Of a stretch of DNA of 64,000 nt, positions 5,126-23,962 are shown piece by piece. The notes below the pieces were generated by a model that worked only from the letters and a program-made list of their open reading frames with translations, had not been told where the DNA came from and searched no databases. How positions within the stretch are numbered: position 1 is the stretch's first letter; every line of letters begins with the position of its first letter. Position numbers and translations under genes: made by a program. This DNA comes from Alphaproteobacteria bacterium. GTDB taxonomy: Bacteria; Myxococcota_A; UBA796; GCA-2862545. The DNA lies in NCBI GenBank assembly GCA_020632925.1, contig JACKER010000007.1:116910-180909 (forward strand), in the 5' to 3' direction.

Positions 5126-5788
5126 TCAGCCCGCGGTCGTCGCTTCCGCGTCCAGCGTGGCCATCGCGGACGGTGCGAGCCGTGGGTAGTGGCGGCGCCA
5201 GGCAGCGACCATCGCGTCGAATGGGATCTCGGCGTGGCTCCCGTGGTCCTCGACGTACTCCATGAAGCGCGTGTCGCGGTCGTACTCCTGGAAGATCGCG
5301 TCGCGCTCGCCGTCCCACTCGAGCGGGGAGACGCCGAGGCGCTCGCAGAGCTCCGCGTTGAACGCAGGCGTCGTGGCGACCCAGCGGCCGTCGAGGAAGA
5401 GCTCGGTGTACCCGTGGAACACGAGCAGGTCGGTGCCGAGGTACGCCTCGAGCTTCGCGGTGCCGACGTGGTTGCGGACGTTCGCGAAGTGCAGCCGGCT
5501 CGGGATGCCGAGCGCGCGCGCGGCCGCGGCCAGCAGGAGCGCCTTGTCGATGCAGTGCCCACCGCGGTCGCCGGGGCGCGAGAGCACCTCGCTCGCGAGG
5601 TACCCCTCGGGCTCGAGCGCGATCCGGTAGGGGTTGTACCGCCAGCCGTCGCGCACGGCATAGAACAACGCCACCGCCGAGGCCTTCGGGTCCCCGCGGT
5701 CGTACCGACGAGCGAAGGCCACGATCTCGGGGTGGTCGCTGTCCACGTAGCGGTTCGGCCGCAGGTAGACCGGGTCCAGATCCGTCAT
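5126..5788 (-). CDS. transglutaminase-like superfamily protein
   Basis: The real start is MTDLDPVYL at 5788, within the 402-aa ORF; the upstream part of that ORF is Arg/Gly junk. The core motif is GDRGGHCIDKALLLAAAARALGIPSRLHFANV (transglutaminase-like Cys and following helix). An RBS GGGAGG lies upstream. Its ATG overlaps the TGA of the pirin gene (ATGA). Confidence 0.65.
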   Translation of the reverse strand: MTDLDPVYLRPNRYVDSDHPEIVAFARRYDRGDPKASAVALFYAVRDGWRYNPYRIALEPEGYLASEVLSRPGDRGGHCIDKALLLAAAARALGIPSRLHFANVRNHVGTAKLEAYLGTDLLVFHGYTELFLDGRWVATTPAFNAELCERLGVSPLEWDGERDAIFQEYDRDTRFMEYVEDHGSHAEIPFDAMVAAWRRHYPRLAPSAMATLDAEATTAG

Positions 5789-6726
5789 CCGCCCACCAAC
5801 CTCCCCGAGCGGTAGTCCGCCCAGGCCTGGCGGATCTCCTCCTCGGTGTTCATCACGAAGGGGCCGCCGCGCGCCACGGGCTCCCCGATCGGTGCGCCCG
5901 CGACCAGCAGGAGGCGGCCGGCACCCGTCGCGCGCACCTCCTCGCCGTCGGAGAGGATGGCCAACGAGCCAGGCGCCACCGGCGTCCCCGCGATGACCGG
6001 CGCCCCGGAGATGCCCGCGACGAACGCCGTGTGCCCCGCCGGGACCTCCAGCGCGAGCTCCCCGCCCTCCTCGACCGTGACGTCGAGCACGGTGGGCTTC
6101 ACGACCACGCCGTCCACCGGTCCGGTGACGCCGCCGACGTTCCCCGCGAGGACACGGGCCGTGGCGTCGCCGACGTCGACGGTGGGGACATCGCCCGCCT
6201 GCATGTCCTGGTACCGCGGCGGGTCCCACTTGCGGGCGGCGGGCAGGTTCACCCAGAGCTGGAAGCCGCGCATCCGGCCCTCGACGGGTTCGGGCATCTC
6301 CGAGTGGACGATGCCTCGCCCGGCGGTCATCCACTGGATGCAGCCGGGCAGCAGGCGGCCGTGGTTGCCGACCGAGTCCTCGTGGACGACCGCGCCGTCG
6401 AGCAGGATGGTGACGGTCTCGAAGCCGCGGTGCGGGTGGTCCGGGAAGCCCTTCACGTAGTCGGCGGGGTCGTCGCTGCCGAACTCGTCGAGCAGCAGGA
6501 AGGGGTCGAGCAGGGACAGCTCGCGGCTGCCGAGCAGTCGGCGGAGCTTCACGCCCGCGCCGTCCCGGGTGAACGCCCCCGACACCGTCCGAGCCACGGT
6601 CCGCGCGGTGCGTCGGCGAACCGGGGGAGGGGACGCGCCGAGCAGCAGCGGCGCACCGAGCGCCAGCGGCCCGGCGACGGCGGCGGCACCGACGAGCAGG
6701 TGGCGCCTGGCGAGGGGGGACGACAT
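5785..6726 (-). CDS. pirin-family protein with a Tat-type signal peptide
   Basis: Pirin motifs are present: HPHRGFETVTILLDGAVVHEDS and the cupin His residues. The start was set at MSSPLARRHLLVGAAAVAGPLALGAPLLLGAS, which has an RR motif, a hydrophobic h-region and AxA. The upstream 82 codons of the ORF (SASVSASLSA...) are the antisense reading of a 12-bp tandem repeat and are excluded. Confidence 0.75.
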   Translation of the reverse strand: MSSPLARRHLLVGAAAVAGPLALGAPLLLGASPPPVRRRTARTVARTVSGAFTRDGAGVKLRRLLGSRELSLLDPFLLLDEFGSDDPADYVKGFPDHPHRGFETVTILLDGAVVHEDSVGNHGRLLPGCIQWMTAGRGIVHSEMPEPVEGRMRGFQLWVNLPAARKWDPPRYQDMQAGDVPTVDVGDATARVLAGNVGGVTGPVDGVVVKPTVLDVTVEEGGELALEVPAGHTAFVAGISGAPVIAGTPVAPGSLAILSDGEEVRATGAGRLLLVAGAPIGEPVARGGPFVMNTEEEIRQAWADYRSGRLVGG

Positions 6727-6733
6727 CGGCTCA

Positions 6734-7378
6734 GTGTATCCTGGCTCCGTGCTGCCCTGGATGCTGGCGCTGTGGTCCTGCGAAGCCGACACGGTCGTCG
6801 ACGGCACGCTCGTGGCGTCCGACGCCGACACGGACGCGGACACCGACGCGGACAGCGACGCCGACACGGACGCGGACAGCGACGCCGACACGGACGCGGA
6901 CACCGACACCGCGGTCCACACCGGGCCCGTCCTGCCGGCGCCGGACTGGTCGCTCGCGGACGTGAACGACACCTCGCCCAGCTACGCGCAGCAGGTCAGC
7001 CCCCGCGACGAGCTCCTCAAGGTCAGCGGCTGGTACTTCACGCACGCCACGTGAAGCTACTGCCGCTCCCAGTATGGGAAGCTCCAGCAACTCCAGAACG
7101 AGCTCGACGCGGCCCACCCCGGTGAGGTGGCGCTGCTCGCCGTCAACCAGGCCGGTCAGGAGTCGGGCGTGCCCGTGATGGCCGCGCTCGGCGACCTCCC
7201 GCTGCTCCAGGACACCGTCGAGGTCGACGCCTGGGGGGCCTGGGGCGCGACCTGGCGGGACGTCGTGATCCTCGACGGGGACAACCTGGTGGTGGGGGTC
7301 TACAACCTGACGAGCCACGACCTGAACGACCCCGCGAACTACGCGGAGCTCGAGGCGATGCTGCTCAGCGCGCGATGA
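6734..7378 (+). CDS. TlpA/ResA-like thiol:disulfide oxidoreductase, candidate selenoprotein (in-frame TGA at 7052..7054 read as Sec, giving a UxxC motif)
   Basis: ORFs 6569..7054 and 7127..7378 are in the same frame, separated only by the TGA at 7052..7054. The joined translation has thioredoxin-fold architecture: PAPDWSLADVNDTSPSYAQQVSPRDELLKVSGWYFTHAT-[TGA]-SYCRSQYGKLQQLQNELDAAHPGEVALLAVNQAG...TWRDVVILDGDNLVVGVYN. The TGA sits exactly where the first Cys of WCxxC falls. The N-terminus has a short hydrophobic/Cys segment (VLPWMLALWSC) plus the (DADT)n linker. The start is uncertain (GTG 6734 or ATG 6761). Confidence 0.5.
6821..6910. repeat. 12-bp tandem repeat (GACACGGACGCG / GACAGCGACGCC), about 7 units; it encodes (DADT/DADS)n in the + frame
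   Basis: The period is directly visible. It translates to DADTDADTDADSDADTDADSDADTDADTD inside the TlpA-like gene, and to SASVSASLSA in the antisense frame. Confidence 0.7.
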
Positions 7379-8204
7379 AGGCCGTGACCTCCATCGTGGT
7401 GTAGAGCACCCAGTGCAGCAGGAAGGAGGGCCACGCGCTCTTTGCCCGCCAGCACAGCCAGCCCATCAGGATGCCGCCGAACCAGCTCGAGATCATCTCG
7501 GGCTCGGGCTTGTGCTGGTGCAGCAGGAAGAACGGGTACGCCTGGATCACGATCGCCGCGACGGGCCCGAGCGTCCGCCCGAGGCCGAAGAGCATGAAGC
7601 CCCGGTAGTAGTACTCCCAGCAGAACATGTAGACGCCCATCGCGAGCTCGTACTGGATCAGGGCGACCACGCTGGTCCGCGCGGGCTTGTACCGCGGGTA
7701 GAACTGCGCGAACTCGGGGAACATCCAGACCACGATCGGGATGCAGACGAGGATCGCGACGAGCAGGATGCCGACGGGCCGCGACCACCAGCGGACGTCG
7801 CCGAGACCGAGGCCCCAGGCGCTCCATGGGACCTTCCCGCGCGCCATCGCCGCCACCACCATCAGGACGCCGACCGCCGCACCCAGAGCCAGCGAGGTGG
7901 GGTCGTCCTTGAGCCACGCCTTGCCCGCCGGGTGGTACGCCCAGATCAGCGCGGGCGCCATGGCGGACGCGACGCCGACGCCAGCGAGCCCCATCGCGAG
8001 CGGGTCGCTGCTGTCGTGGACCACGGCCGCCCAGGTCGGCAGCACCAGGAACACGATGAGGGCCAGCGCCGGCAGGATCACGAGGTGCGCGGGTGGGCCG
8101 TACAGGTCGTAGTGGAGCTGCGAGTACGCCGCGACCGTCGCGAGGAACAGCATCCACGCGTGTTGTCTCGTCCAACCCCAGAGCTCGCGAACGGTCTCGA
8201 TCAT
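7365..8204 (-). CDS. CPBP family intramembrane glutamic endopeptidase (CAAX protease-like)
   Basis: Polytopic membrane protein with motifs CWEYYYRGF (EExxxR-like), AYPFFLLHQH (FxxxH) and WPSFLLHWVLYT (second His). Confidence 0.75.
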   Translation of the reverse strand: MIETVRELWGWTRQHAWMLFLATVAAYSQLHYDLYGPPAHLVILPALALIVFLVLPTWAAVVHDSSDPLAMGLAGVGVASAMAPALIWAYHPAGKAWLKDDPTSLALGAAVGVLMVVAAMARGKVPWSAWGLGLGDVRWWSRPVGILLVAILVCIPIVVWMFPEFAQFYPRYKPARTSVVALIQYELAMGVYMFCWEYYYRGFMLFGLGRTLGPVAAIVIQAYPFFLLHQHKPEPEMISSWFGGILMGWLCWRAKSAWPSFLLHWVLYTTMEVTAFIAR

Positions 8205-10598: not shown

Positions 10599-11169
10599 AG
10601 AAGCAATCACGAAGCAAACGATGCAGACGGGTGCGCCCACCGCCATCCGTGATGGATGACGTCGAAACACGGGCCCGGAAACGAAAAACCCCCGGGTCCA
10701 TCGTCGGAGCCGGGGGCTTCTGCGCGATCGGAGGCCGATCGTCGCGTCACGCACCCGAGTCCGGGACGGACCCGCTGGTATCTCGGTCCGCCGCGGGGAA
10801 GCGGAGGCCGGGCTGCGGCACGAGGTGGTAGGCGTTCGTCATGGTTGGAGGGGTAAGCCGATGGGGATCGCCTGTCCAGGAGATCGTGTAGATTTCTCGT
10901 GAGTTGGCCTCACACGGTCTTTTGTAGGAATGTGCTTGCCGGATCCGAGTCGAACGGGCTAGCTCCAGACCATGCTGGTGATCCCCGCCATCGCTCCGTC
11001 GACGCTCGCGTGCACCTCCTCGTGCTCGTGGGATTCGACCGTGGTGTCGGGGGGCTGACCAGCATGCTGCGCCCCCGGCACGGACGCCGGGGTGCCACCG
11101 CCTCCTGGTCTCCGTGTCGGTGGTGCGGATCCACCACCAACCACCCTCTCAGGAGGACGGAGGCCCGTG

Positions 11170-12345
<1,176 letters not shown>

Positions 12346-12381: not shown

Positions 12382-13686
12382 CTACCGCTGCCAGCACCAG
12401 TTGGTGGAGGTGGTGCAGTGGTCGCGGACGTAGGCGCTGTACGAGCAGCTGCCCGAACCGCAGTTGTACCCCGGGTTGCCGGCGGGCTCGAGCTTGTAGT
12501 CCTCGGCGGCGCCCTGGCCGCTGCAGTACCGCGAGTCGCCCCAGCCAGACAGGTACGCCCGCTGGTTCACCGACGTGTTGCTGGTCGAGCAGTGGTAGTC
12601 CGTGGGCTGGCCGCCGAAGAGCAGGGCGCACGCGTCCAGGCAGCTGTACACCGGCGGATCCGTCGTCCAGTCCGGACCGTCGCCCACGAGGAAGGAGCCG
12701 ATCGGGCCGCACCGCGGGTCGACGCCGTCGCAGTTCTGGTCGATGCCGTCCTCGCAGATCTCGCGAGCGCCCGGGTACCGCGTGGGGTCGGTGTCGGCGC
12801 AGTCGAGCCCGCCCGTCGCGCTCACGAGGTCGCCACCGGGGTACGAGCACTGGACGACCACGGCGTCACCCGCGCCGAAGCCGTCGCCATCGAGGTCGCG
12901 CAGCCAGCCCGCCACCTCGTACACGTCGGGATCGTCGTCGTCGCAGTCCGACCCGTCCTCCGACAGGCCGGGCCCGAGCTCGCAGGCCTTCACGGTGCTG
13001 CCGGGTCGGCCGTACCCGTCTCCGTCCTCGTCCTCGTAGAAGGTGTCGACGATGAAGGAGGCGTCGTTGTCGTCGCAGTCGCCACCCGTGGCGGTCCATC
13101 CGCTCGGGGGCAGGCAGGCGCGGCGGGTGATGTCGGGGTTACCGGCGCCGTCGCGGTCCGCGTCCCGGTAATAGACGATCATCGAGTCCGGATCGGTGTC
13201 GTCGTCGTCGTCGTCCACGAACCCGTCGCAGTCGTCGTCCCCGTTCCCGCAGCGCTCGACCGCCTCGGGGTTCACGTCCGGCTTCGTGTCGTCGCAGTCG
13301 AGGTCGTTGTCGACGAAGCCGTCCGGCGCCTTGCAGGCGAGCAGGCTCTGGTACGCCCCACCGAAGCCGTCGCCGTCCTCGTCGATCCAGAACTGGTCGA
13401 GCTTGGGCAGCCCCTGGTCGATCGACCCGTCGCAGTCGTCGTCGATCCCGTTGCACGCTTCCTTGGTGTCGGGGTTCCGCTCCGGGTCGGTGTCGTCGCA
13501 GTCGAGCGGTTGGTCCACCTGTCCCGCCTCGAGGGCGCACACCTTGCCCAGCGACGCGCCGCCGAAGCCGTCGCCATCGTCGTCCGCCCAGGCGTCGATC
13601 GTGGGCAGGCAGGCGGGTTCGGGCTGCGCGCAGCTGGCTGCGAACAGACCGGATCCAACGAGGAGCAGCAGGGTCGAGATCCGCAT
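12382..13686 (-). CDS. lipoprotein with MopE-like putative metal-binding repeats
   Basis: Lipobox LFAASC. Repeated DxDGDGFG...DCDDTDPxxNP...CNGxDDDCDG modules, and a Cys-rich C-terminus. Confidence 0.7.
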   Translation of the reverse strand: MRISTLLLLVGSGLFAASCAQPEPACLPTIDAWADDDGDGFGGASLGKVCALEAGQVDQPLDCDDTDPERNPDTKEACNGIDDDCDGSIDQGLPKLDQFWIDEDGDGFGGAYQSLLACKAPDGFVDNDLDCDDTKPDVNPEAVERCGNGDDDCDGFVDDDDDDTDPDSMIVYYRDADRDGAGNPDITRRACLPPSGWTATGGDCDDNDASFIVDTFYEDEDGDGYGRPGSTVKACELGPGLSEDGSDCDDDDPDVYEVAGWLRDLDGDGFGAGDAVVVQCSYPGGDLVSATGGLDCADTDPTRYPGAREICEDGIDQNCDGVDPRCGPIGSFLVGDGPDWTTDPPVYSCLDACALLFGGQPTDYHCSTSNTSVNQRAYLSGWGDSRYCSGQGAAEDYKLEPAGNPGYNCGSGSCSYSAYVRDHCTTSTNWCWQR

Positions 13687-21094: not shown

Positions 21095-21670
21095 TCAGGG
21101 CGCGATGGCGGTCACGTCGAAGTCGACGCTCGCGTCGGTCTCCCCCGGGATGGCCGACAGCCCCTCGGTCGCGACGGTGTCCGCGAGGTCCGCGGTCTTC
21201 TGCGGGACGCCGCCCTGGAGCGGCAGGTGGCGCAGGGTCACCGTGAGCACGCCCGTCCCGGACGCCTGGGGGGTGACCTCGGCGCTCAGGCCCACGGGGA
21301 AGCCGTTGTCGTCGGTGTCGGCGTACGCGATGTCCAGCAGCCCGTCGACCGCGGTCCCGGTGAAGAACACCTGGTGCTGGTCGGACTCCTCCGCCACCTC
21401 GGTGGTGACGTCATCGGTCGGATCGGAGAGCTCGTCGAGGAAGCTCACGGACAGGTCCCAGGTCTCGCCGACACCGAGCTCGATCGGGTCGATTACGGGA
21501 GAACCGTCGTTCTCCGGGTCCGCCCACGTCGCCTCGACGGTGTTGCCGGAGGTCTGGCCGACGAACGTGAGCGTCACCGTCGTGATCACCTCCTGCTCGT
21601 TGTCCTCGGTCGGGTTGCTCACGTCGGAGCAGGCGGCCAGCAGCAGCGCGGCCAGCAGGGCGCGGTTCAT
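21095..21670 (-). CDS. lipoprotein
   Basis: MNRALLAALLLAACSD lipobox. Acidic/Thr-rich mature protein. 12 nt downstream of the TonB-dependent receptor. Confidence 0.55.
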   Translation of the reverse strand: MNRALLAALLLAACSDVSNPTEDNEQEVITTVTLTFVGQTSGNTVEATWADPENDGSPVIDPIELGVGETWDLSVSFLDELSDPTDDVTTEVAEESDQHQVFFTGTAVDGLLDIAYADTDDNGFPVGLSAEVTPQASGTGVLTVTLRHLPLQGGVPQKTADLADTVATEGLSAIPGETDASVDFDVTAIAP

Positions 21671-21682
21671 CTCGTCTCCAGG

Positions 21683-23806
21683 TCAGAAGTCCATGCCGAG
21701 GCGGAGGCGGACCTCGCGGCCCGGCTCGTCGGCGGAGTAGCGGAGGAGGCTCGTGTACTCGCGGTACCGGGCGTCGAGCAGGTTGTTGCCCTCCACCCCC
21801 ACGCGCAGCAGGTCGTGGCCCACGGGCACCTCGGCGCTCGCGGAGGCTCCGACGAGCACGTAGCCGTCGGGCGGCGGCGCGAGGTCCACGTCTTCGTCGA
21901 CGTGGGTCTGGCGGGCGACCCAGGTCACGTTCGCCTGCACGACGGCCTCGTCGAAGCCGCGGATGCGGGGGCGCCCGAGCAGCGCGCCGCGCACGCGGTC
22001 GGGTGGGATCATCACCAGCCCCGCGCCGGTCGCGAGATCGACGGCCCGCACGATGGCGACGCTGGTGGTCGCGCCGATCACCTCGTCGGGCAGCAGCTCG
22101 ACCTGGCCGTCCCCGCCGTAGAACATCGCGTCGATCGGCCGGAAGTCGTAGCGCGGGTACGCGCCCCGGATGGTCACGTCGAACGCTGGCGAGCCGTCCG
22201 GGCCGAGCGCGGGCGCGAAGTAGATGTAGTTCTGGATCAGGTTGCCGTAGACCGAGCCCTCGCCGCGCAGCCAGCGCAGGTCCCAGCCCAGGGTGGGGGA
22301 GGCGCCCCAGGTGGTCTCCACGCCGAGCGAGGGGTCGCCGAGCGCATAGACCGGCGAGGTCGGGGCGCTCCCGTTCATGTACTGCTCGTCCGCGTTCGGG
22401 AAGCGGTTCGCCGACGACAGGTCGAGGCGGGTCTCGATCTGCTCGCTCGGCCGCCAGAGCGCTCCGAGGGACAGGCTGCCGCCGGTCCACGCCGAGTTGC
22501 ACCGGACCGAGGTGTCGCCCGGTGCACAGTCGTCGGGTGCCAGCGTTCCGCGGTCGACGTGCCGGGAGAACGCGTCCTGCGTGAGGAAGGCCTGCCGAGC
22601 GAGGTGGTCGACCCGCGCCCCGGCCTCGATCACGACCTCGTGCACGTGCCAGCGCTCGATGGCGAACAGGCCGCCCGACAGGGCGCGGTAGTTGGGGATC
22701 AGCGGCAGCCCGGCGTACACGTTCTCCTGGAAGGAGGCGTCGAAGCCGATGCCGCCCTCGTGCGTGCCCTCGCCGAGCACGTGCGCGCCGTGGCCCAGCC
22801 AGCCGTCCAGGCTGTGGGTGCGCAGGACGAAGTCGTACTGGGCGCCCGCGGCGTCGCCACCGCGCACCGGCTCGGCCTCCTGTCGGTGATCGAGCTGGAA
22901 CGCGTAGGTGAGCTGGAGGCTGCCGCTGCCGACCGGGAACGCCCCGCGCAGGAGCGCCAGGTCGTGGGCCACCTGCTGGTAGGGCCGATCGATCGTGTAG
23001 CTCGTGGTCCAGCTCTCGCTGCCCACGGGGACGGGGTCGTCCAGGCGGTCGAGGAAGTCGTCGGGGCTCTCCGCACCCACGCAGTAGCAGACGCCGCCGA
23101 GGAAGTCGTAGTGCCGCCAGGACGCCGTGATGGTCGACATGCCGATGCGCGCGGCCACCGTGCCGCCCAGGTTCCACGTGATCGACGCCGTGTTGCCGAG
23201 CACGTAGTCGGGCGTGTGCAGCGCCGCCCCGCGCCCGTAGTTGCCCTCGAGCCGGAAGGTCAGGCCCGGCGCCTTCGCGAGCACCCCGTCCACGCGGCCC
23301 GCCGCCACCCCGCGCCACCCGTTGGACACGCCCACGAGCTGCACCTTGCCGCCCAGCCCCACCTCGTCGCGCAGCGGAGGAGGCTCCACGAGGACCACGC
23401 CGCCGATCGCGTCGGGACCGTAGCGGACACCCGCCGCGCCCTTCACGACGTCGATCTTGCCGGCGGCGAAGGGGTCGATCTCGGTGGCGTGGTCCTGGCC
23501 CCACTTCTGGCTCTCGTGCCGCACGCCGTCGAAGAGCACGAGCAGGCGGCGCTCGGTCTGGCCGCGGAGGATGGGCTTGGTGTTGTCGCCGTTCCCGCGT
23601 GCGGCGACGACCCCCGGGACGGCGGCCACCGCTTCGGCGAGGTCGGAGCCCGCCTCCTTCGCCAGCGCCCCTTCGTCCAGCGTGGTGCGCGCGTGCGTGT
23701 CCTCCTCGGCGGCCGAGCGACCCTCGACGACGATCTCCTCGACGTCGTCCAGATCCTCGTCCGTCGAGGGCTCCTCCGCCCACGCCACGGCCATCCACCA
23801 GAGCAC
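21683..23806 (-). CDS. TonB-dependent outer-membrane receptor
   Basis: Plug domain motifs (EEIVVEG, TTLDEGAL, VPGV, NTKPILRGQ, RLLVLFDGVR). 22-strand barrel-like composition. C-terminal ...RLRLGMDF. Confidence 0.8.
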   Translation of the reverse strand: MLWWMAVAWAEEPSTDEDLDDVEEIVVEGRSAAEEDTHARTTLDEGALAKEAGSDLAEAVAAVPGVVAARGNGDNTKPILRGQTERRLLVLFDGVRHESQKWGQDHATEIDPFAAGKIDVVKGAAGVRYGPDAIGGVVLVEPPPLRDEVGLGGKVQLVGVSNGWRGVAAGRVDGVLAKAPGLTFRLEGNYGRGAALHTPDYVLGNTASITWNLGGTVAARIGMSTITASWRHYDFLGGVCYCVGAESPDDFLDRLDDPVPVGSESWTTSYTIDRPYQQVAHDLALLRGAFPVGSGSLQLTYAFQLDHRQEAEPVRGGDAAGAQYDFVLRTHSLDGWLGHGAHVLGEGTHEGGIGFDASFQENVYAGLPLIPNYRALSGGLFAIERWHVHEVVIEAGARVDHLARQAFLTQDAFSRHVDRGTLAPDDCAPGDTSVRCNSAWTGGSLSLGALWRPSEQIETRLDLSSANRFPNADEQYMNGSAPTSPVYALGDPSLGVETTWGASPTLGWDLRWLRGEGSVYGNLIQNYIYFAPALGPDGSPAFDVTIRGAYPRYDFRPIDAMFYGGDGQVELLPDEVIGATTSVAIVRAVDLATGAGLVMIPPDRVRGALLGRPRIRGFDEAVVQANVTWVARQTHVDEDVDLAPPPDGYVLVGASASAEVPVGHDLLRVGVEGNNLLDARYREYTSLLRYSADEPGREVRLRLGMDF

Positions 23807-23962
23807 CCGCTGCCCTCCACGCGGCGAGGGTAGTCACCGGGGTGTGCGCCGGCGCGTGACACGTTGTCCCGCCAATGGATCCATCGGTGGCGGATCATGC
23901 GCTTGTAACGTCGCGTTACGGGCCGCCATGCACCCGCTGGGGTGCGGCGGGATGTCGCAGGC

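Follow-up and report, generated by a model that had tools for sequence, protein, structure and literature searches.

Results

A reading frame interrupted by a single TGA

In the 64-kb stretch of DNA analyzed here (the window), two open reading frames on the forward strand, 6569..7054 and 7127..7378, share one frame and are separated solely by the TGA at 7052-7054, as the ORF coordinates and the read-through translation confirm for the initial claim. Translation through this codon from GTG 6734 yields a protein of 214 residues reading ...VSGWYFTHAT-[TGA]-SYCRSQYGKLQQ... The predicted selenoprotein coding sequence (6734..7378, plus strand) comprises 214 codons, one of them the internal UGA, followed by the stop codon TGA at 7376-7378. 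The predicted Sec codon UGA (7052..7054, plus strand) occupies the first position of a U-S-Y-C redox motif embedded in HAT-U-SYC-R, and the last residue of this motif, the putative resolving Cys, is encoded at 7061-7063. The start codon is ambiguous, either GTG 6734 or GTG 6749. GenBank uses GTG 6749, and its gene model MCB9683518.1 (H6735_00590; P0020 in our sequence set) is a hypothetical protein of 101 amino acids ending at 7051.

Genes for a pirin, a transglutaminase-like protein, an Rce1-like protease and a VWA protein are the neighbors in the window. The pirin gene is transcribed divergently. Its real start is ATG 6726; a Tat-like motif (SPLARRHLLVG) follows closely, and the first residue that matches the Pirin domain is 59. 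If GTG 6734 is used, the two divergent starts are separated by 7 nt (6727-6733), in line with the tight spacing noted in the preliminary description.

The first codons (6734..6781, plus strand) encode a putative lipoprotein signal peptide, (M)YPGSVLPWMLALWS-C, with a lipobox-like LWSC at 6770-6781 and the Cys codon at 6779-6781. The L-W-S-C sequence follows a 15-residue uncharged leader, and the signal is atypical in having Trp at -2 and an n-region that lacks basic residues. A close relative used for comparison, L030, carries an Arg at residue 5. Most orthologues have lipoboxes of the canonical form [LVI][ASTVI][GAS]C, for example LLAC, LAGC, IAAC and LAAC. Judged by its residues, the N-terminus is probably a short lipoprotein signal, by which the protein would be exported and lipidated. 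It is followed by a 12-bp tandem repeat of 7.4 copies (6819..6907, plus strand; Tandem Repeats Finder score 122, 80% matches) encoding (DADT/DADS)n, and thus by the Asp-rich linker described earlier. The antisense frame of the repeat extends the pirin ORF to 6972, which verifies that this extension is artificial. The repeat of L030 differs in copy number and phase and shows a 6-nt indel, and other family members possess different low-complexity linkers in the same place.

The TGA is conserved at the redox-active position

The locus search was seeded with five closer sequences; an earlier alignment of 14 sequences had contained no stretch that was conserved enough. All counts refer to intact loci in GTDB species genomes. 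Alignment to UxxC and CxxC orthologues, proposed beforehand as a check, revealed TGA at the same codon in 28 of 28 intact orthologous loci and Cys in other members of the family; TAA or TAG never occurred. Two tandem paralogues likewise carry TGA, giving 30 of 30 intact family genes. Among the carriers are the cultured Nannocystis exedens DSM 71, N. punicea and Nannocystis sp. RBIL2 as well as MAGs from Myxococcota, Eisenbacteria, Krumholzibacteriia, Planctomycetota and Verrucomicrobiota. Family representatives include 63 domains with Cys-x-x-Cys at the same columns. In P0001, P0003, P0004 and P0006 the residue aligned to the in-frame TGA is Cys, and the Cys forms use TGC or TGT at this column. 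The invariant TGA together with Cys at the same column suggests that the codon is read as Sec.

The sequence downstream of the TGA was compared with L030, which is 94% identical at the nucleotide level, has the same synteny and retains the TGA. In the 93 codons 3′ of the TGA, 18 synonymous and 3 non-synonymous changes were counted, and purifying selection is apparent on both sides of the codon. Judged by this substitution pattern, the region 3′ of the TGA is under protein-coding selection. No synonymous change occurred across the 15 codons starting at the TGA, and the hairpin described below lies within a 69-nt run identical between the window and L030.

A conserved SECIS-like hairpin follows the TGA

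Ten nucleotides past the UGA begins a SECIS-like minihelix, GCUCCC-AGUAU-GGG(A)AGC (7065..7082, plus strand), which is defined by the minimum-free-energy fold and by covariation and consists of 6 bp with a 1-nt bulge; its length is 17-18 nt. The apical loop of 5 nt (7071-7075) has a G at loop position 2, and a G in a small apical loop is a criterion for bacterial SECIS elements (PMC1088965). The loop opening A-G-U is invariant in 29 of 29 sequences. With -8.3 kcal/mol the window minihelix falls into the family range of -5.0 to -11.8 kcal/mol, and minimum-free-energy folding of 7052-7111 reproduces the hairpin drawn in the preliminary description. This hairpin is no more stable than expected by chance (z = +0.5; 141 of 200 shuffles fold as well). 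We therefore rejected stability as evidence for a SECIS element; the evidence is carried by comparison instead.

In the alignment, 93.7% of the cells of the helix (columns 14-19/25-30) are paired, a value reached by none of 500 shuffles, and registers slid by 1-3 columns leave only 20-58% of the cells paired. Covariation amounts to 22 double-sided changes in four of the six pairs, and RNAalifold independently recovers the same helix. In the window lineage the codons UCC/GGG replace AGC/GGC, a compensatory choice. Of the 6 helix pairs, 4, 2, 2 and 6 can still form in the four Cys forms, so that the hairpin is lost in three of them. The extended hairpin as first drawn (7060..7087, plus strand) includes a CUG..CAG lower stem, which is part of the minimum-free-energy fold but is not conserved: its outer pair forms in only 3 of 29 sequences and the other two in 24 and 16 of 29, with no covariation. 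Of the hairpin originally proposed, the upper 6 bp and the loop at 7065-7082 are thus retained, and the lower stem was rejected as part of the element. No SECIS or other Rfam family matched 7030-7130. As far as sequence comparison can establish it, the hairpin 7065-7082 is a conserved, covarying SECIS-like element.

The SECIS element of E. coli fdhF is an intra-coding hairpin located about 10-11 nt past the UGA, whose minihelix of roughly 17 nt has a small apical loop with G-U and a bulged nucleotide. The window element resembles it in its intra-coding position, spacing, length of about 17 nt and loop G-U, and some family members share a bulge. In contrast, there is no sequence similarity and no Rfam match, and the loop consensus of the window family is A-G-U-U-C/U.

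Membership in NCBIfam NF053656

With U written as C, the window protein matched NCBIfam NF053656 with 200.9 bits (E = 8.4e-60) over profile positions 2-146 of 146, the curated whole-protein cut-off being 100 bits; it was the only match among the NCBIfam redoxin-type models. The match covers residues 70-213 and delimits the thioredoxin-fold domain (6941..7372, plus strand). Within it lie a predicted cis-Pro codon (7199-7201) in the near-invariant DLPLLQD and two conserved motifs, WRDVV (7253-7267) and YNLT (7301-7312), all on the plus strand. NF053656.1 redoxin_TUGYCR is described as "TUGYCR motif thioredoxin fold (seleno)protein" (NCBIfam release 20.0, June 2026), and the orthologues from Nannocystis and Verrucomicrobiota as well as the Cys forms also match it. 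Since NCBIfam already curates these proteins as a (seleno)protein family, the novelty of the finding is smaller than had been assumed when the locus was first described.

The motif T-U-S-Y-C-R of the window agrees with T-(U/C)-G-Y-C-R except for Ser in place of Gly, a variant that recurs in 7 of 28 orthologues (L001, L002, L010, L014, L017, L024 and L028). The window protein shares with the family a domain of about 146 residues and Sec or Cys in one column followed by x-Y-C-R. It differs in the Ser, in other codons for the SECIS arms together with the 1-nt bulge, and in the Asp-rich linker encoded by the 12-bp repeat.

The family comprises 871 clusters at E <= 1e-10. Fragments of about 98 amino acids that begin just past the active site account for about 85 of the best 150 matches. 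The homologues also include P0002, a fragment with 70% identity.

A literature search returned no paper containing "TUGYCR", and one on Sec usage in myxobacteria was uninformative; no experimentally characterized family member was found in the literature. NF053656 is also missing from a 2026 inventory of prokaryotic selenoproteins (PMC13188914). Table 1 of that inventory lists several UxxC thioredoxin-fold selenoproteins, namely a thiol:disulfide interchange protein (PF13098), a Prx-like thiol:disulfide oxidoreductase (PF00578), thiol-disulfide isomerase-like proteins and UGC-containing TlpA-family proteins (cd02966). The window protein has in common with them the thioredoxin fold, Sec as the first residue of UxxC, the existence of Cys homologues and a SECIS element directly 3′ of the UGA, but it belongs to a separate sequence family and stays below the Pfam cut-offs of those families.

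Structural similarity to ResA, DsbE and TlpA

The fold was assessed on the Cys orthologue P0003, which is 48% identical to the window protein and stands in for it. Its AF2 model (pLDDT 90.5) places C90 directly ahead of helix 91-109 (α1), so that the motif sits at the α1 N-cap. The TGA thus lies at the first position of a CxxC-type motif, the redox-active position assigned to it at the outset. The top PDB matches of the model in Foldseek were ResA, DsbE, TlpA and the lipoprotein thioredoxin Etrx2 (E = 4e-9 to 1e-6). ResA, DsbE and TlpA structures fill ranks 1-39, followed by Bcp, AhpC and GPx at ranks 40-49. Together, the model and its thioredoxin-fold matches corroborate the assignment of a thioredoxin-fold domain. 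Sequence profiles gave weaker signals. AhpC-TSA matched with 15.2 bits (E = 0.021), under the Pfam cut-off of 26, Redoxin was not matched, and the best hit of a PDB profile search was DsbE 3gl3 at E = 0.2. In the alignment with 3gl3, the motif W-x-F-x-x-x-T-U-x-x-C corresponds to the WCxxC of DsbE. The designation "TlpA-like" therefore holds at the fold level (Foldseek E = 4e-9), whereas the sequence models remain below threshold.

The P0003 model shares an N-terminal β-hairpin and a central insertion with ResA, CcmG (DsbE) and TlpA (1su9, 3gl3 and 1jfu; target-normalised TM-score 0.6-0.82, E = 4e-9 to 3e-7). Further common features of the window family and these proteins are the redox motif at the N-terminus of α1, a conserved Pro before β3 and attachment to the membrane facing outwards, which is predicted for the window family. 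In contrast, identity is only 13-20%, Sec takes the place of the first Cys, and genes for cytochrome-c maturation, Sco, CcdA or DsbD are not conserved nearby.

Genomic context, genetic code and Sec machinery

Apart from the gene itself, no gene cluster was common to at least 4 of the 30 loci. The absence of a conserved neighborhood means that the context offers no clue about the substrate or electron donor.

TGA terminates most of the confident genes in the window, which shows that the genome uses neither code 4 nor code 25. A composition scan of the 64 kb revealed only two TGAs with coding-like sequence on either side. The second one, at 21683 on the minus strand, was rejected as a recoding site; it is a true stop codon at the end of a TonB-type receptor (...GMDF), with a lipoprotein gene on its other side.

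When E. coli SelA, SelB and SelD were compared by tblastn with the window and the flanks of the related loci, only EF-Tu was found, and EF-Tu at 11092-12345 is the sole SelB-like match in the window. tRNA-Sec was not detected in the window either; the one tRNA there, a tRNA-Asp, is its only Rfam match.

Discussion

On balance, the TGA at 7052-7054 almost certainly encodes selenocysteine, in a thioredoxin-fold enzyme that is probably tethered to the membrane. The gene is very likely a Sec-containing member of NCBIfam NF053656, in which Sec insertion itself is deduced from conservation of the codon and the hairpin. The source organism would consequently use selenocysteine.

We propose that UGA 7052 is recoded as Sec during translation. 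Located 10 nt past the codon, the hairpin (7065-7082), whose small loop contains a G, would bring SelB-GTP-Sec-tRNA(Sec) to the ribosome. As it lies in the coding sequence, it would also fix the next residues (R-S-Q-Y/F-G-...). The short N-terminal signal with its LWSC lipobox may direct export and lipidation, and the Asp-rich (DADT)n segment could act as a flexible tether between lipid anchor and domain. The extracytoplasmic thioredoxin-fold domain might then work as a thiol:disulfide oxidoreductase structurally akin to ResA/DsbE/TlpA, with Sec at the α1 N-cap as the presumed attacking nucleophile and the Cys three residues on as the resolving one. Redox direction and substrate are inferred.

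A selenoprotein with peroxidase-like chemistry (Prx/Bcp/GPx-type, with a peroxidatic Sec) rather than a ResA/TlpA-type protein-disulfide reductase appears unlikely. AhpC-TSA is the sole, weak Pfam match, Bcp, AhpC and GPx structures follow among the fold matches, and many UxxC/TxxU selenoproteins are peroxidases (PMC13188914, Table 1). However, ResA, DsbE and TlpA are the best structural matches and the motif aligns with the WCxxC of DsbE. Moreover, the Prx signature PxxxTxxC is absent, Thr being found at -1 and -4 from U and not at -3. Similarly doubtful is the idea that the TUGYCR proteins, as lipid-anchored and exported selenoenzymes, form a class with a new function. They would act on a substrate that has no relation to the cytochrome-c or Sco maturation in which ResA and TlpA serve, for instance as an envelope reductase for peroxide or polysulfide or as a redox sensor, and the in-frame SECIS would dictate part of the protein motif. 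Under such a reading, Ser/Gly at U+5 would covary with Tyr/His at U+9 owing to base pairing between their codons in the RNA. Such a class would be compatible with the lack of characterized members, the lack of conserved neighbors and the omission of the family from the 2026 inventory.

Read-through of the UGA with another amino acid in an organism that has lost or altered the Sec pathway is considerably less probable. Cys might be inserted through Cys- or thiophosphate-derived charging of tRNA-Sec or by a tRNA-Sec-like tRNA, and Trp by near-cognate suppression. Such decoding would fit the lack of Sec machinery in the window and the flanks of related loci, and the common Cys forms of the family imply that Cys works at this site. 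On the other hand, a SelB-type hairpin is kept by lineage-specific compensatory codons, is identical in the 94% relative L030 and is lost in three of four true Cys forms. Maintenance of UGA and hairpin without SelB and Sec would have no evident selective reason.

A broken or split gene (a pseudogene, a sequencing error or two genes), producing an N-terminal fragment of 106 residues with or without an 83-residue product from GTG 7127, is hardly credible: automatic annotation does stop at 7051 (P0020, 101 aa) and many database entries are C-terminal fragments of about 98 aa, but all 30 intact family genes recovered, from several phyla, carry this TGA, the 24 codons between TGA and GTG 7127 are conserved as protein and hold the second Cys and helix α1, the ratio of synonymous to non-synonymous changes past the TGA is 18:3, and, judged from the structural model, neither half alone should be able to form a thioredoxin fold.

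Reading the UGA as Sec corrects the annotation and turns the 101-residue hypothetical protein MCB9683518.1 into a complete redox enzyme. The result amounts to a well-founded correction of the record rather than a discovery; knowledge of recoding and of thioredoxin-fold enzymes is unchanged. Furthermore, the comparison provides a clear, covariation-backed SECIS definition for the NF053656 family, of which public protein sets contain hundreds of C-terminal fragments of about 98 residues. Nannocystis exedens DSM 71 is a culturable carrier of this type of predicted exported selenoprotein.

Reading frame and annotation of the gene

The gene at window positions 6734–7378 (+) comprises 214 sense positions, the sole interruption being an in-frame TGA at 7052–7054, the predicted Sec codon (U). 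Its product reads (M)YPGSVLPWMLALWSC-EADTVVDGTLVAS-(DADT/DADS)n-...APDWSLADVNDTSPSYAQQVSPRDELLKVSGWYFTHAT-U-SYCRSQYGKLQQLQNELD...DLPLLQD...WRDVVILD...VYNLT...LLSAR. As stated in the preliminary description, the acidic linker is encoded by a tandem repeat (6819–6907, +; 7.4 copies of a 12-bp unit), the antisense frame of which artificially extends the neighboring pirin ORF, in fact up to position 6972. The GenBank model starts at GTG 6749 and ends at the TGA, resulting in a 101-aa hypothetical protein (MCB9683518.1/H6735_00590) in a MAG labeled Alphaproteobacteria bacterium. The window has a G+C content of 71.8%, and TGA is the common stop codon elsewhere in it.

Across the 64 kb, a scan revealed two TGAs flanked on either side by sequence of coding-like codon composition, one of them being the target site. 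The TGA at 21683 (-) was rejected as a recoding site: it genuinely terminates a receptor (...GMDF), and the lipoprotein signal of the next gene follows. In this region (21095–23833, -), a TonB-type receptor ORF (21683..23806) ends with ...LGMDF-TGA and a 191-aa lipoprotein gene (MNRALLAALLLAAC...) lies in the same frame 12 nt past this TGA. By composition the region is a read-through candidate, yet it consists of two ordinary adjacent genes.

The protein belongs to a curated (seleno)protein family

For profile searches, U was written as C. The protein matched the NCBIfam family NF053656.1 (redoxin_TUGYCR, "TUGYCR motif thioredoxin fold (seleno)protein") over 145 of 146 profile positions with 200.9 bits, compared to a curated cut-off of 100, which was passed by orthologues and Cys forms alike. 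Since NCBI already lists NF053656 as a curated family of (seleno)proteins, the kind of protein is known. The sole Pfam match, AhpC-TSA, remained below threshold (15.2 versus 26 bits), and the best hit of the family profile among PDB sequences was DsbE 3gl3 with an E-value of only 0.2; this alignment sets WYF...T-C-x-Y-C-R on FWASWCGPCR. NCBIfam matches to Sdr/Clf adhesins were rejected as low-complexity similarity to the Asp-rich linker. Our literature search found the TUGYCR motif in no paper and no characterized member of NF053656, and Table 1 of a review on prokaryotic selenoproteins from May 2026 (PMC13188914) does not list the family. The outcome, of modest importance as a whole, is a selenoprotein call missed by the deposited annotation, to which a well-supported description of a family-specific SECIS element is added.

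The TGA is conserved and exchanged for Cys

A word-indexed search returned four full-length homologues in which Cys occupies the TGA column (P0001, P0003, P0004 and P0006; motif T-C-[GS]-Y-C-R) and about 50 fragments of approx. 97 aa with a Met start just downstream of the site, the signature of gene callers halting at an in-frame TGA. Scanning one genome per GTDB species yielded 29 orthologous loci, and TGA was present at exactly the target codon in all 28 intact ones. Among the carriers are Nannocystis exedens DSM 71, N. punicea FL3 and Nannocystis sp. RBIL2 as well as MAGs of Myxococcota, Eisenbacteria, Krumholzibacteriia, Planctomycetota and Verrucomicrobiota. Tandem paralogues in L004 (~5273) and L017 (~6883) both carry the TGA and the same hairpin in each copy. 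The 29th locus, L025 (6001–6430) from the long-read genome of N. pusilla Na p29, contains a frameshift just ahead of the active site and is a pseudogene or else misassembled.

In an exhaustive profile search, 1859 representative clusters reached E ≤ 0.001, and 871 still reached E ≤ 1e-10. Among the collected family sequences, 63 domains have Cys-x-x-Cys at both columns and 139 aligned domains stop short. The classical Sec/Cys signature is thus present many times over.

Two homologues have Trp at the Sec column (P0080, HSSWSYCRSQF; P0111, HAGWIYCRSQF), which is likely a TGA translated by an annotation pipeline under code 4 or 25 and not a true Trp. The 612-aa fragment P0064 contains four or more TUGYCR-type domains in tandem, with degenerate internal active sites (ATQTRD, ATDTAC, ATDPAC). 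It begins just past one expected U position and stops just before another (...WFFGLSS), which suggests that the called ORF is flanked by Sec codons and belongs to a larger multi-domain protein.

A covarying SECIS-like hairpin follows the TGA

A gap-free alignment of the 45 nt from the TGA in 29 sequences revealed a conserved helix of 6 bp (columns 14–19 with 25–30) closed by a 5-nt loop, in which A20-G21-U22 is invariant. Pairing is possible in 93.7% of cells, compared to 20–58% in registers slid by 1–3 columns, and 22 compensatory, double-sided changes are spread over four of the six pairs; none of 500 column shuffles equaled these values. RNAalifold independently predicted the same helix, and no Rfam model matched the hairpin. 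As the codons for R-S-Q-F-G-Y contain the helix, sequences have either Ser(AGC) with Tyr(UAC) or Gly(GGC) with His(CAC). These AGC-UAC and GGC-CAC partners are four codons apart (columns 16/28 and 15/29; window 7067/7079 region), and the Arg codon, at its third base, covaries with the Tyr/Ser codon at its second. Because the helix forces amino acid covariation, part of the apparent protein motif RSQFGY is an RNA constraint. The Gln codon is always CAG in Sec forms, and CAA occurs in one Cys form. Of the four Cys forms, one has kept the helix, and it is lost in the others (4, 2 and 2 of 6 pairs left).

At this position the window contains the minihelix GCUCCC-AGUAU-GGG(A)AGC (7065–7082, +), which is built from the divergent codons UCC, GGG and AAG-C and shares a one-base bulge with L001, L010 and L027. 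Of the hairpin drawn in the preliminary description, this upper helix is conserved and covarying, while the lower CUG/CAG stem is not conserved. The stability of the minihelix (-8.3 kcal/mol) falls into the family range (-5.0 to -11.8), but stability alone is uninformative because z is +0.5 against shuffles. The geometry (10-nt spacer, 17–18-nt minihelix, G in the small apical loop) resembles the E. coli fdhF minimal element. It also agrees with what has been published on bacterial SECIS elements (PMC1088965).

The closely related ENA contig L030 (94% identity; same order pirin, target, Rce1-like gene) retains the TGA. Past the hairpin, the two differ over 93 codons by 18 synonymous changes and 3 non-synonymous ones, which demonstrates translation in the target frame. 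The 15 codons from the TGA, located in a 69-nt identical run (7019–7087), show no synonymous change, compared to about one change per five codons in the remainder of the gene. Being a single comparison, this lends weak support to the SECIS element.

Within the 64-kb window, tRNA-Asp was the only tRNA found and tRNA-Sec was lacking, no SelA or SelD homologue was detected, and resemblance to SelB was limited to EF-Tu. Both the UGA and a structurally intact hairpin, with a sequence diverged from the family consensus, have been kept in this lineage. This argues indirectly for SelB-dependent decoding, as retention of both would be hard to explain otherwise. The gene very probably encodes a selenoprotein, as the preliminary description had proposed; Sec insertion itself we infer.

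Predicted fold, export and function

A fold model was built with a 56-row alignment on the Cys orthologue P0003 (48% identity, same HAT-C-SYCRSQY) in place of the window protein (pLDDT 90.5, pTM 0.82). The first Cys, C90, is modeled between strand 80–86 and helix 91–109, and the near-invariant P140 (window codon 7199–7201) precedes strand 141–143, which in the model is the canonical thioredoxin-fold arrangement. Foldseek top matches in the PDB were ResA, DsbE, other "thiol:disulfide interchange" proteins, TlpA and the pneumococcal lipoprotein thioredoxin Etrx2 (E-values 4e-9 to 1e-6, target-normalized TM-scores 0.6–0.82, identities 13–20%), with Bcp, AhpC and GPx ranking below.

Most orthologues have a canonical lipoprotein signal at the N-terminus, and an ordinary signal peptide is found there in Verrucomicrobiota members; a low-complexity linker follows in each case. 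The window leader is short and atypical (LWSC, without basic residue). Most likely, the protein is an exported, lipid-tethered thiol:disulfide oxidoreductase, in which Sec would be the attacking and Cys at +3 the resolving residue. Some orthologues carry a dockerin-type C-terminal extension (PF00404). In Planctomycetota and Verrucomicrobiota (L016, L026, L028, L029; P0057–P0059), it coincides with an ordinary signal peptide lacking a lipobox, which would suggest a different mode of surface attachment.

Genomic neighborhood and source lineage

The divergent neighbor is a two-domain pirin (Pirin and Pirin_C; 5785–6726, -). If the target starts at GTG 6734, 7 nt separate it from the pirin ATG at 6726, confirming the proximity of starts noted previously, and the promoter of each gene must therefore lie inside the opposite gene. 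The same arrangement exists in L030. The pirin leader reads SPLARRHLLVGAAAVAG... and contains a Tat-like SPLARRHLLVG, which suggests an exported pirin. Window neighbors (transglutaminase-like protein, Tat-signal pirin, Rce1-like protease, VWA lipoprotein) provided no functional lead, and no neighbor gene was conserved across the 30 loci. The target, at its 3′ end, shares 14 nt with the convergent Rce1-like/CPBP gene (7365..8204, -), and the 79 nt at 7322–7400 form the longest run identical to L030.

The closest homologues of the target are found in Myxococcota (Nannocystis and MAGs), in contrast to the GenBank label Alphaproteobacteria, and MopE-type metal-binding repeats are located at 12382–13686. 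Based on these homologues, the G+C content and the repeats, the taxonomic label of the source MAG may be wrong.
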